A stretch of DNA of 64,000 bases, taken from the IMG/VR virus record IMGVR_UViG_3300047160_009070, positions 1-64,000 of that record; one strand, written 5' to 3'. The DNA comes from a virus. The notes beneath the pieces were generated by a model, which made no database searches, was not told the DNA's origin, and saw only the letters and a list, made by a program, of their open reading frames with translations. Of this stretch, positions 34,829-63,289 are shown piece by piece; position 1 is the stretch's first letter; each line of letters starts with the position of its first letter. A program made the translations under genes and the position numbers.

Positions 34829-35187
34829 TCCCCAGGCTGCATGAGCTCTACGGGCCGGCTGATCCTGTGTACGGGTCTTGGTGGGATGTGCCCGCCAAGA
34901 AGTTCTGGGCGTACGTGCGGATGATGCCGGTGCTGCGCGCCCGCGCGTCGATCTCGAGGATCAACGAGATGTCGTTGGCGTTCGGGTCGATGCAGAAGGA
35001 GACCGCCAACTCGTTCATGCTGCAGCTGAGGACGGCGGCGACTTTGGACAGCGGCGACAGCGGCCCGAGGGTGTACCGGCCGCGGTCGCCTGCCGAGATG
35101 GCCGGTCTGGCTGGTGCGGGTACGGCGGTGGTGATGGAACAGGGCCCGAGGACACGCTCCTCCGCAACCCCGGTCGGTACGCCGTGA
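34825..35187 (+). CDS. Tail assembly chaperone C-part (gpT-like), in -1 frame
   Basis: -1 frame open across TCG GGG AGT TGA; LIPRLHELYG...WWDVP; either a -1 slip or a TTG start. Confidence 0.6.
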   Translation: MIPRLHELYGPADPVYGSWWDVPAKKFWAYVRMMPVLRARASISRINEMSLAFGSMQKETANSFMLQLRTAATLDSGDSGPRVYRPRSPAEMAGLAGAGTAVVMEQGPRTRSSATPVGTP

Positions 35188-35329
35188 GACGCCGTGTAAC
35201 GCGTTCTGAGCGGCCGGACCGTGTACCGGCCCTTGGCCATGCACACACCCCGCGGGGCGTGACAGGCGCCTGCAGGCGCTGCGAGACGCAGCAAATTGAC
35301 AGGTCGAGGAAAGGAGGTCCGGTACTCTC

Positions 35330-59091: not shown

Positions 59092-59244
59092 GTCGCTAGC
59101 TGCGGCAAAACCCTCGACGGCTGGCCGTCATAGCGTCACAATGCGCCGATCGTTACAGTGGGCGTCCGGTGAGCGTGGTAGCTTCGTATGGGTGAGAGAC
59201 GAGCAGGCCGATCACGGCTGTGGGCTGGACGTCCCGGGTGCGGC

Positions 59245-60384
59245 GTGACCAGGCAGCTGTCGTTCACCGAGATCCAGACCGCTTTGACGTGCGAGGGACG
59301 CCACGCGTTCCAGTACACCGGCCGTCTGACCGGCGGCGAGACTCTGAAGCGTAAGCAGATCGCCGTGGAGCTTTCCAACGGCCGCGCCTGGGGTGCTGCT
59401 GTGGCTGCGTGGCACGGCTTCCCTGCCGACACGAGCCTGCTGGACGCCTACCGGCCCGTACTCGCCAAGCAAGCCGCCCACGAGGCGCTGCTGGCGTCCT
59501 ACAGGCATGATGTGGAGGAGCAGCTCGCCGCCGGCGTGTGGGTTCCGGTGGAGGCACAGGTGGACCGCCAGACTTGGCTGGCGGAGATCCTCGACCATTA
59601 CATGGCGACCGGCGTCCCGCTCGAGAATCTCACCAGGATCGAGGGTGGGTTCGATATGCCGCTGCCGTCCCGGACAGGCAAACGTGTGTCGACGGTGTAC
59701 CGGTTCACCGGGTTTCTTGACGGCTGGACGGTCCCGGCCGGCGGTGGGCATGCGCTGGTGGAGTTCAAGTTTCGCTCCCGTCTCACCCCGCCGGACCAGG
59801 TGCAGCTGTCCCGGCAGGTCCGCTGGTATGCGCTGGCGTTGCAGCGCGAGACGGGTGTGCCGGTGATCGGCGCGGTCCTGGATGAGCGTTTGGCGGAGCC
59901 GCCGAAGCCTCCGCGTGTGGTGCAGGCGAAACGCAAGGGGGAGGGTGTGGACGGCTGGACGGTCAGTCACGCCAAGGACCAGCTCACCACCCCCGAGCTT
60001 TATCTCGAGGCGTGCGGGTTGTTCGACGCCGAGCCGGAGCCCGACACACTCGATGCTCTGCGGACTCGTTTGTGGCAGCAGCGCCACCCGATTCTGTTCC
60101 GCCCGTCCGAGTTGGCTGAGGCGGAGCGCGAGTTGGTGTCGGCGGCGAAACTGATCCGCGATCTCGATTCGGGCGCCCGCTACCCGGTGCGTAACGCCCA
60201 GACGCAGCTGTGCCGCCGCTGCCGCTATCTCGAGGCATGTCCGAACCCGGACGACCAGTTTTATCTCGACACGCTCTACGAGCGCACTGTGCCGAAGAGG
60301 CTGCGTGCTCGAGAGGAGGAGAGCACCGGCGGGGGAACTCTGGCCCCTGGACCCCCCGCCGGCCTCTTCGCGGAGGCAGCATGA
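59245..60384 (+). CDS. PD-(D/E)xK exonuclease (RecE/Cas4-like); may start at 59188
   Basis: LSFTEIQTALTC, GRAWG, FTGFLDG..LVEFK, QVRWYA, CRRCRYLEAC. Confidence 0.85.
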   Translation: MTRQLSFTEIQTALTCEGRHAFQYTGRLTGGETLKRKQIAVELSNGRAWGAAVAAWHGFPADTSLLDAYRPVLAKQAAHEALLASYRHDVEEQLAAGVWVPVEAQVDRQTWLAEILDHYMATGVPLENLTRIEGGFDMPLPSRTGKRVSTVYRFTGFLDGWTVPAGGGHALVEFKFRSRLTPPDQVQLSRQVRWYALALQRETGVPVIGAVLDERLAEPPKPPRVVQAKRKGEGVDGWTVSHAKDQLTTPELYLEACGLFDAEPEPDTLDALRTRLWQQRHPILFRPSELAEAERELVSAAKLIRDLDSGARYPVRNAQTQLCRRCRYLEACPNPDDQFYLDTLYERTVPKRLRAREEESTGGGTLAPGPPAGLFAEAA

Positions 60385-60812
60385 TGGCCTACAACGACGT
60401 GAACTTCACTTGCTGTGTGTGCGGGATCGCGATCACGATGCCGGAGGGCCTGTATCAGCAGCGGGTGACGGATCACGGCGAGTTCTATTGCGTGAACGGC
60501 CACCGGCAGCGTTTCACCCAGAAGGACAAGAAGGAGCAGGAGATCGCCCGTTTGCGCGAAGAGGTGCGAGCCAGGGACTCGCTGATCGAGACTTTCCGTA
60601 GCGAGGCGAACGAATTGTGGGATGAGCGCGAGGGTTTGATCGCTTTGCTGCGCGAATGCCCGCTCTGTGATTGGCGCTCCAGCAAGCGCATCCCCCGGGG
60701 TGGTGTTCGTGCCGGCGTTGAGCGTGTCCACCAGCAGTTGGTCGACCATTTGGCGCACGACCACGGGCTGCCGGTGCCGCAGGAGCAGCGTCTTCTGGAG
60801 GCGGGGGCGTGA
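60381..60812 (+). CDS. Zn-binding coiled-coil hypothetical protein
   Basis: CCVCG, FYCVNGH, CPLC, HLAHDH. Confidence 0.7.
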   Translation: MMAYNDVNFTCCVCGIAITMPEGLYQQRVTDHGEFYCVNGHRQRFTQKDKKEQEIARLREEVRARDSLIETFRSEANELWDEREGLIALLRECPLCDWRSSKRIPRGGVRAGVERVHQQLVDHLAHDHGLPVPQEQRLLEAGA

Positions 60813-61276
60813 GCTCCACCCGCCATGGCGTGTCCGGCAAGTGGGACGGCCTCATCGAGGAGCGCGACCGGCTGAAGGACCAGGTGCAGGGCCTGAGCGA
60901 TCATGTCGAGCGTCTGGTGGAGGAGTGCGACAGGCTGCTGGACGCCAAGGAGCTTCAGCTGCACGAGCTACGCGACCTGCTTCGGGACCAGCCGAACGAG
61001 GCTTGGGCGACTGTTTCGGGGACGGTGGAGGTCGCTCAGCGTCGTGTGGAGGAGGCCGAGGCCCGCGCCGACATCCGGCCTGACAGCGACGAGCAGGAGG
61101 CGCTCGACGCTTTGCAGAGCTACATGGCGGTGGTGGTGCACCGCTGGAAGCTCCGCGCCAACCAGGGCGAGTTGCTCGCCGCTGTTCACACTCTGCAGGG
61201 CGCTGTCCAGCAGCACCTGCTTCACCGGATCGCCCCGAACAATTGGGCTAGCTGGTGGCAGGAAAGTTCACCATGA
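60809..61276 (+). CDS. Coiled-coil hypothetical protein
   Basis: GTGA-coupled ORF. Confidence 0.6.
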   Translation: MSSTRHGVSGKWDGLIEERDRLKDQVQGLSDHVERLVEECDRLLDAKELQLHELRDLLRDQPNEAWATVSGTVEVAQRRVEEAEARADIRPDSDEQEALDALQSYMAVVVHRWKLRANQGELLAAVHTLQGAVQQHLLHRIAPNNWASWWQESSP

Positions 61277-61310
61277 GCGATCCGTTGAGGCGGAGAAGGG
61301 ACGGAATCTG

Positions 61311-62112
61311 ATGCGATTCGTGGACCGACCGGGGCCTGCTAGACCGAACATTCTGATCTACGGGCCCCCGTAAGGAACCAAAGGTGGGTAAGACGGCGGG
61401 TGCGTGCTCGTCGGGTTTGGGAACGATCCTGTTCAACCTCGATCTCCCGAACGCGACCCGTTATGCCCGTTCCAAGAAACGCGATCCGGACGGCAGGGTG
61501 ATGGAGGTCGAGTTGCCGCCGTTCGAGGAACGCAAACTCCCGGTCTTCGATCTGATGGGCGAGATCTCCCGGTCGGTCGCCGATCCGCGCCAGGAGGTGG
61601 CGGAGGTGGTGGTCACCGACCCGATGGGCGAGCTTTACCGGCGTCTGCTGGAGGAGGTGTCGAACCGGTCGATCCATCCGACGTTCGATCACCGGCTGTG
61701 GGTGACCACCCAGATCGAGCGTTACTGCCGGTTCCTGTGCGAGCTGCCGACCATTTCGGCGATCTTCGTGTGCCACGAGCTTCCGGTGAAGGACGAGTCG
61801 ACCGAGTCGTTCGAGCGGTTGCCGTTCACCGGCACCACCAACATCAATCTCGGCGCCAAGTTGATGTCGATGGTGGATGTGATCGCCTACGCCGGCGTGT
61901 CGGTGCAGGAGAACGGCGCGAAGGAGTACGGTGCCCAGTTGATCATCGACCAAGGGCGCCGCGGCGGGGACCGGTTCGATTGTCTGGGGGACTATCGCCC
62001 GCTGGATTTGAAGGACTGGTTCGCGGCGATCGCTGGGGCGGAGGTTGCCGATCTCAGCGCTGAGACCAGTAGCGAGGAGCCTGCCGGGAAGCCGGTGGCG
62101 GAGGCGGCGTGA
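61311..62112 (+). CDS. AAA_24/Sak4-like ATPase interrupted by a 10-nt stop-containing insert in Walker A
   Basis: MRFVDRPGPARPNILIYGPP-TAA...KVGKT; VVVTDPMGELY, IFVCHE, MVDVIAY; flanked by exonuclease and SSB-like genes. Confidence 0.85.
62050..62067. repeat. 18-bp palindrome copy 3 (17/18 match)
   Basis: GATCTCAGCGCTGAGACC. Confidence 0.7.
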
Positions 62113-62788: not shown

Positions 62789-63289
62789 ATGTCAGCGTTT
62801 GATTACGGGACCGCCGAGTCCTGGGATACGTCCACCGAGACTCTGTTGCCGGTCGGCAACTTTGTGGCGGAGATCGTGATGGCCGAGCCCGGTCACACGA
62901 AGGGCAGCATGGGCCGTGAAGCGAAGCCGCAACTCGAGATCAAGGTCCAGAACGACCGGGGTTCCCGGAAGGACTGGATTGTGATCACCCCGAACACGCA
63001 GGGCAAGGTGGTGCAGGTGTTCGATGCGTCCGGGACGGAGCGTCCGAAGCAGGGCGAGTTCGATCCGTCGACGGGCGAGTTGACGGAGGAGGCGTGCGCC
63101 CGGTTGCGCGGCAAGAAGGTGGGTGTGGTGATCCGCGACGAGCAGTCGTTGAAGGATCCGACGCGCATGGAGCCTCGCATCCAGGGCTATGTGCAGCCTG
63201 ACCGGATCACGGAGGACGTGCCGATCGACACCGCCGGACTGCCTCCCGCGAACGGGCCGCAGTCCGCCGATTCGAAGATTCCCTTCTAG
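62789..63289 (+). CDS. DUF669-like single-stranded DNA-binding protein
   Basis: LLPVGNFVAEI N-motif; C-terminal IPF; SD AAAGGA. Confidence 0.75.
   Translation: MSAFDYGTAESWDTSTETLLPVGNFVAEIVMAEPGHTKGSMGREAKPQLEIKVQNDRGSRKDWIVITPNTQGKVVQVFDASGTERPKQGEFDPSTGELTEEACARLRGKKVGVVIRDEQSLKDPTRMEPRIQGYVQPDRITEDVPIDTAGLPPANGPQSADSKIPF

Follow-up and report, generated by a model that had tools for sequence, protein, structure and literature searches.

A candidate stop-led 10-nt translational hop within the Walker A motif of a phage Sak4-like ATPase gene

Programmed translational bypassing is, to our knowledge, rare even by textbook standards, the known cases being T4 gene 60, the 'byps' of yeast mitochondria and the candidate in phage phiHau3. 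The large terminase gene of phiHau3, a Streptomyces phage, contains two frame-breaking 10-nt blocks, each headed by a UUA codon (PMC10732093), and the gaps are credited in that paper to Smith et al. 2013. With UAA in place of the UUA of the first block, ribosomes in E. coli bypassed it, as mass spectrometry showed by detecting the junction peptide; the insertion of a +1-frame stop into the gap did not lower recoding (PMC10732093). In the phiHau3 record as read here, the first gap has GGC, 7 nt and GGT, followed by AAG, and the second has TCT, 7 nt and TCC, followed by ACG. Hops over a stop codon were also made in synthetic E. coli constructs, which are described in PMC5009743, with reference to Weiss et al. 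1987, as engineered and inefficient. No natural in-frame stop-hop is known, the utilization of bypassing has been called scarce, and short-range equivalents of gene 60, although presumed for a long time, have hardly been found (PMC5009743). Bypass of the kind considered here is very rare in the published literature.

The gene described in this study lies on a linear 95,319-nt viral contig of IMG/VR (66% GC, estimated 82% complete), the first 64 kb of which, the whole stretch of DNA analysed, are referred to as the window. It starts at ATG 61311 and runs for 20 codons to CCG at 61368-70, where TAA (61371-73) follows; coding then goes on in the +1 frame as far as 62112. The best explanation of this arrangement is one gene for a Sak4-like (AAA_24) recombination ATPase, whose Walker A motif is split by a real 10-nt coding gap. 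The following features were located.

61292..61301, plus strand: purine-rich, Shine-Dalgarno-like stretch (GGAGAAGGGA), 9 nt 5′ of ATG 61311; read directly, with a putative function.
61311..61370, plus strand: N-terminal ATPase piece of 20 codons, covering strand β1 and the leading half of Walker A, with ..YGPP as its last residues; it aligns with the N-termini of homologues.
61365..61369, plus strand: run of five C, a possible place for a -2 or +1 slip of tRNA-Pro, the route of one rival explanation.
61368..61370, plus strand: proposed take-off codon CCG, the second Pro of GPP, placed by the sequence and the alignment of homologues.
61371..61377, plus strand: 7-nt non-coding gap TAAGGAA, missing in all homologues.
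61371-73, within the gap, plus strand: TAA, which would occupy the A site at take-off.
61372-76, within the gap, plus strand: Shine-Dalgarno-like AAGGA.
61378..61380, plus strand: proposed landing codon CCA; this Pro codon is rare in the phage.
61381..62112, plus strand: resumed coding from AAG, with KVGKT of Walker A and the ATPase body (243 codons and the stop); PHROG 124, Sak4-like.
61384..61386, plus strand: GTG, a possible internal start in another rival reading, 7 nt after AAGGA; under the hop it would be the Val of KVGKT.

The 10-nt interruption inside Walker A, reported in the original prediction, was confirmed by direct reading: positions 61362-61395 read exactly GGG CCC CCG TAA GGA ACC AAA GGT GGG TAA GAC G. 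The downstream +1 frame is open only from 61357 (251 aa open; 242 aa from GTG 61384 to the stop at 62110-12), and the change of frame must therefore fall within 61357-61373. Upstream of 61311 the frame of the N-terminal piece has the GC pattern of non-coding DNA and the overlapping ORF at 60809-61276 looks coding, which identifies ATG 61311 as the start. The resumed piece has a GC3 of 0.86 and matches PHROG 124, 'Sak4-like ssDNA annealing protein' (E = 3.4e-8). On its own it gave no Pfam match at E up to 0.01, and in a protein search 76 of its 78 non-self homologues carried PF13479 (AAA_24). The Walker A signature GxxxxGK[ST] would be present only in the predicted product of the hop (GPPKVGKT); none of the products of standard decoding has it. 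The deposited product begins 11 residues into the 242-aa C-terminal piece, which corresponds to codon 32 of the joined protein and is past Walker A. Gene callers truncate interrupted genes of this kind, and the proteins are thereby systematically mis-annotated.

Deletion of 10 nt restores GPPKVGKT, and because CC flanks both ends, five equivalent registers achieve the same. The nearest relatives (62-64% identity) read ..NIL[LM]YGPxKxGKTAGAC.. within one frame, and the loops of the closest homologues, GPPKSGKT, GPNKVGKT and GPEKAGKT, are without indel. When CCG, ending at 61370, was joined to AAG at 61381, the resulting 263-aa protein aligned to 75 homologues without a gap. The alignment of homologues that had been suggested as a check thus bore out the 10-nt deletion, and an indel in the P-loop was found in 0 of about 230 family members having an N-terminus. 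A family HMM was built from 179 full-length relatives, and each candidate product was scored with it. The hop product obtained 315.7 bits, the products of a -2 or +1 slip 305.6-307.5 bits, which is 8-10 bits lower, and the product initiated at GTG 61384 obtained 283.0 bits. The N-terminal piece of 20 codons contributes 33 bits to this score, and by the family profile its match to the family exceeds chance. Homology also fixes the position of the landing codon, for which the chance of a match in the first two bases is about 1 in 16. The bare pattern of a codon, a stop and a synonymous codon within 16 nt is common by chance, with about 140 occurrences in the 95-kb genome, so this grammar counts only together with homology.

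The best other database match of the ATPase has 64% identity, and no close relative of the phage was present in the databases searched. No DNA or protein match was obtained among cultured phages and no match among GTDB genomes, and the family profile matched none of the solved structures. A pattern scan of IMG/VR for YGPP..K.GKT with an insert returned 15 matches, of which 0 belonged to the ATPase family.

Among the 22 family members compared at the DNA level, one (L036) was interrupted at the same codon. This 9.2-kb soil metagenome contig reads TAT GGG CCC CCG, then 13 nt, then CCG AAA ACA GGC AAG. The interruption falls 57 nt into the ATPase gene, and a shift of +16 from CCG to CCG restores YGPPKTGKT. 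The 90%-identity protein cluster of L036 comprises 21 members from JGI, ENA and Logan data. Among the 15 members listed, two (P0111 and P0112) are uninterrupted and their sequence is exactly the predicted YGPPKTGKT product, seven contain a +1-frame reading of the insert (MG[P/L]RGQANP, then KTGKT), and six are called from a later ATG, the interruption being deduced from this N-terminal truncation. The Pro/Leu difference in the +1 reading stems from CCC versus CCT, a change that leaves the 0-frame protein unaltered and interrupts the C run; slippage by +1 can therefore neither explain this cluster nor be the general route, and the allele still permits re-pairing from CCG to CCG. The A-site codon at the supposed take-off of L036 is AGG, which at 13 per 1000 is not rare there, and the parallel thus fits a slow-codon rule less well; the rare-codon idea was for this reason discarded for L036. 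Between L036 and L041 there are 5 differences in 711 nt (~99% identity), which is too few for a selection test. Local duplication was considered as the origin of the insert and rejected, since the similarity of the insert to its flanks was at chance level (p 0.6 in this phage and 0.09 in L036).

A search of 1.8 billion representatives yielded three further clusters (P0131/P0257, P0143 and P0087) with +1-frame N-termini of the form ..NVLLYGPP and a short insert. Judged from these protein N-termini, the three clusters would be interrupted at the same site. In P0131/P0257, represented by two contigs, 16 of the 16 determinable letters fit, with 13 nt before the Pro codon; in P0143 and P0087 the insert is 7 nt, and a Ser codon instead of a Pro codon would precede the resume codon. 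The second Pro codon was read from DNA as CCG in this phage and in L036, and was back-inferred as NCG, which is compatible with CCG, for P0131, P0143 and P0087. Scans of IMG/VR with P0082, P0111, P0054, P0131 and P0143 gave no match. N-termini that resemble the +1 read-through of ..YGPP plus insert, or that start just past Walker A, were seen in P0131/P0257, P0143, P0087, P0054, P0082 and P0081; P0054, for example, starts MRL and goes on with KSGKT. These six N-terminally odd proteins or groups probably mark further interrupted alleles truncated by gene callers. The gap, its place relative to the homologues, the matched codons and the recurrence in relatives are all observations made on the sequences as deposited.

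A nuclease gene directly precedes the ATPase gene in most relatives, and in this phage a PD-(D/E)XK nuclease is encoded upstream of the ATPase at 59188-60384. In L036 an HNH_3 endonuclease gene (652-1428, E = 3.3e-10) is located between the nuclease and the ATPase, and its stop overlaps the ATPase start. L004 has an HNH-like gene (1998-2495) between the same two genes, yet its ATPase is uninterrupted. In the phage studied here, the two ORFs between nuclease and ATPase showed no nuclease signal, and neither an HNH or HNH_3 domain nor a homing endonuclease was found in the 95-kb record. A selfish-nuclease link like that of gene 60 is accordingly plausible for L036 and is not seen in this phage. 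Downstream of the ATPase, the protein encoded at 62789-63289 had no Pfam match of its own; it is 36% identical to the product of L036 2288-2977, a protein with a short match to DUF669 (E = 7e-5), and both proteins end in an SSB-like ..IPF/..LPF tail. With its acidic, SSB-like ..IPF tail, the 62789-63289 protein is a likely partner of the Sak4-like ATPase. With the nuclease upstream and the SSB-like protein downstream, the ATPase forms a phage recombination module. Between the upstream gene and the ATPase, a mini-ORF of 12 codons (61273-61311) forms a bridge. The ATG of this mini-ORF shares bases with the stop of the upstream gene (ATGA at 61273-76), and its own TGA does so with ATG 61311 (TGATG); through this chain, translation of the ATPase could be coupled to that of the preceding gene. 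The ORF at 60378-60809 has weak homologues in Mycobacterium prophages and Gordonia phages.

Two other genes of the phage are broken in a similar manner. The DUF5131 gene is broken at codon 28, where ACT TGA (14446-51) is followed by an ACC (14451-53) that overlaps the stop, giving a shift of +5. The break separates the cysteines of the protein, and its C-terminal piece matches PF07505 (E = 3e-50). The tape measure gene carries CTT TGA C at codon 5 of an ORF of 2565 codons, with CTC 7 nt on. All three breaks of the phage lie within the first 28 codons and begin with a stop, and in each case a single tRNA could read the codons on either side. Three long ORFs (2565, 1437 and 1121 codons) are intact, and the assembly is therefore not prone to indels. 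On the minus strand at 34848-35327, directly upstream of the interrupted tape measure start, there is an open frame of 159 codons with coding-like GC3 (0.82). A pattern of the same geometry, codon, 7 nt and codon (GGT TAG CTTC GGT), occurs beyond the window at genome position 86080-86092 and has an open frame of 270 codons downstream; as this frame has an ATG with a Shine-Dalgarno sequence at 86051, the pattern is likely a chance match.

Across the ten long ORFs of the phage (8036 codons), CCA occurs at 2.1 per 1000 codons versus 44 per 1000 for CCG, and TTA is absent (0/8036). Zero TTA together with a very rare CCA is typical of phages of high-GC actinobacteria. The take-off codon CCG and the landing codon CCA both encode Pro and are identical in their first two bases, and the landing codon lies directly 5′ of the resume codon. 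For re-pairing from CCG to CCA, either a single tRNA-Pro (UGG) would have to read the two codons or the P site would have to accept a wobble mismatch. UAA follows directly after the take-off CCG and thus places a stop in the A site; when a stop follows proline, its decoding is particularly slow and recoding is favoured (PMC3082878). No stimulatory mRNA structure beyond shuffled controls was detected at the site (z -0.72 for 91 nt and +0.47 for 45 nt), and likewise none was detected at the five comparison sites, which were L036, the two other gaps of the phage and both phiHau3 gaps. AAGGA ends 1 nt before the landing codon and 7 nt before GTG 61384. The original prediction gave this element two possible roles. 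As an aid to landing it is too close to the landing codon for contact between Shine-Dalgarno and anti-Shine-Dalgarno sequences with that codon in the P site, and this role is not supported; the spacing of 7 nt does fit initiation at GTG 61384.

With moderate confidence we favour a naturally occurring hop of 10 nt within Walker A, led by a stop and of the phiHau3 type, by which the whole ATPase would be made. A ribosome starting at ATG 61311 would pause at CCG 61368-70, where its peptidyl-tRNA-Pro (...Gly-Pro-Pro) is paired, with UAA occupying the A site; after Pro, release is slow. In a share of the ribosomes the tRNA would leave CCG and the mRNA would slide by 10 nt, upon which the tRNA would re-pair at CCA 61378-80. 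Decoding would then restart at AAG 61381 and yield ...YGPPKVGKT... in a protein of 263 aa in total, and the other ribosomes would terminate and release a peptide of 20 residues. The bypass from CCG to CCA had been put forward in the original prediction, and it is the sole reading that gives the invariant P-loop length of the family; its phiHau3-like geometry and its recurrence in relatives speak for it as well. The hop itself, its efficiency and its purpose are what we infer from the sequences. The purpose could be the throttling of expression, or the gap could be a tolerated insert brought by a selfish element, as in the L036 relatives. A wider and rather doubtful extension would be that the Pro-Pro codons of Walker A in this family are a hot spot for gaps of 7, 10 and 16 nt, led by a stop or a slow codon, that survive by hops from Pro to Pro, and that the phage uses the trick three times, in the recombination ATPase, DUF5131 and tape measure genes, as a stop-gated control reading the termination or tRNA state of the host.

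A shorter move than 10 nt would be made if the tRNA-Pro slipped during the pause at Pro and stop, either by -2, from CCG to CCC at 61366-68, or by +1 on the C run, leaving three to four extra residues (RKEP or KEP) in the P-loop. Five consecutive C precede the stop, and in E. coli pheL, frameshifting of up to 15% occurs where a site of the CCC type precedes a stop (PMC3082878). The insert of 3-4 residues required by both the +1 and the -2 products was, however, seen in none of the 75 homologues, and the lower profile scores of these products are given above. A +1 move from CCG would moreover re-pair on CGU, a poor match, and several of the inferred relatives, like the CCT alleles of the L036 cluster, lack the C run. 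Such a slip is in our judgement very unlikely, and we agree with the original prediction that the +1 slip breaks the loop by making it over-long. We give about as little credence to the alternative that two products are made, by termination at TAA and then a restart or fresh start at GTG 61384 by way of AAGGA, which would give an N-truncated protein with a possibly changed function. The distance of 7 nt from AAGGA to this GTG is ideal, and the start chosen by the gene caller is even later (P0001). The protein would, on the other hand, begin M-G-K-T, without the first glycine and the lysine of the loop and without strand β1. A RecA-like core that lacks β1 and the loop start is unlikely to bind ATP, as is generally known of P-loop folds, and ATP binding by this product would thus be unlikely. 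Its profile score is 33 bits lower, there is no start codon at the matching place in L036, and a conserved N-terminal piece with its own start would be purposeless.

The remaining alternatives concern the DNA and the gene as a whole. A real 10-nt insertion that inactivates a dispensable recombination gene would leave no full-length ATPase, and the matching Pro codons would then be due to chance or be a by-product of the insertion. Sak4-type genes are accessory in many phages, and the short flanking repeats could stem from the way in which the insert arose. Collateral damage from a selfish element is conceivable, given the HNH gene beside the interrupted L036 gene, and the ~99% identity of the interrupted L036 alleles has left no time for further decay and gives no power to see selection. 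Against this, random inactivation should scatter over the 260 codons of the gene, whereas the breaks recur at the same codon in at least two lineages read from DNA and three inferred ones, among about 250 sampled proteins. The start codon, the Shine-Dalgarno stretch, the N-terminal piece and the 243 downstream codons are all intact; the L036 cluster, among the 15 members listed, includes seven with the insert and six N-truncated ones, from several data sources; and two other genes of the phage, including the essential tape measure gene, are similarly broken within the first 28 codons. We consider inactivation unlikely. That the 10 nt are an error of assembly or sequencing and not part of the phage DNA is extremely unlikely: the insert is known from a single metagenomic contig, but a non-repetitive insert of 10 nt would be an unusual sequencing error, the long ORFs continue for >15 kb without indels, and other phages, assembled independently, carry a similar insert at this codon.

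Compared with the described systems, the candidate hop resembles T4 gene 60 and MobA (PMC5009743; bioRxiv 10.1101/2022.08.31.505936) in that the interrupted gene of L036 is immediately preceded by a gene for an HNH endonuclease; it differs in that no homing endonuclease was found in the 95 kb of this phage. The bypass of gene 60 covers 50 nt versus 10 nt here, the take-off hairpin was not detected at this site, and the 20 residues made at take-off are too few for a nascent-peptide signal about 25-30 residues back. The +1 frameshift at CUU UGA C of prfB (RF2) shares with the ATPase site a stop in the A site as the pause, but here a move into the +1 frame would put CGU in the P site, which does not allow re-pairing from CCG, and no Shine-Dalgarno sequence lies ~3 nt upstream. 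A closer likeness to prfB is found in the tape measure gene of the same phage, which carries CTT TGA C. As in the synthetic stop-hops, a peptidyl-tRNA would cross a stop to a matching codon a few bases downstream; the site described here differs in being part of a wild gene and in changing the frame. If true, a natural 10-nt hop, led by a stop, would take place midway through a catalytic motif of the ATPase and recur at the same codon in independent wild lineages, and the gene would offer a compact and easily cloned test case for take-off at Pro-Pro-stop, for scanning distance and for the distinction between a regulatory gap and the scar of a selfish element.

The phiHau3 terminase gaps differ from the present one in several respects. 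The gap of the ATPase gene is headed by a true stop, UAA, and not by the rare Leu codon UUA, so a link to the host bldA tRNA is not expected. The site lies in the Walker A motif of a Sak4-like ATPase, take-off is from Pro-Pro, a Shine-Dalgarno-like element is included in the gap, and there is no sequence homology between the two. The likeness is one of arrangement: in both cases a take-off codon is followed by 7 nt with a slow first triplet and by a synonymous landing codon, giving a shift of exactly 10 nt. In this phage, as at the first gap of phiHau3, the resume codon is AAG, and the two phages share a high GC content and the avoidance of TTA. The engineered UAA version of the phiHau3 gap is the natural arrangement in this phage.
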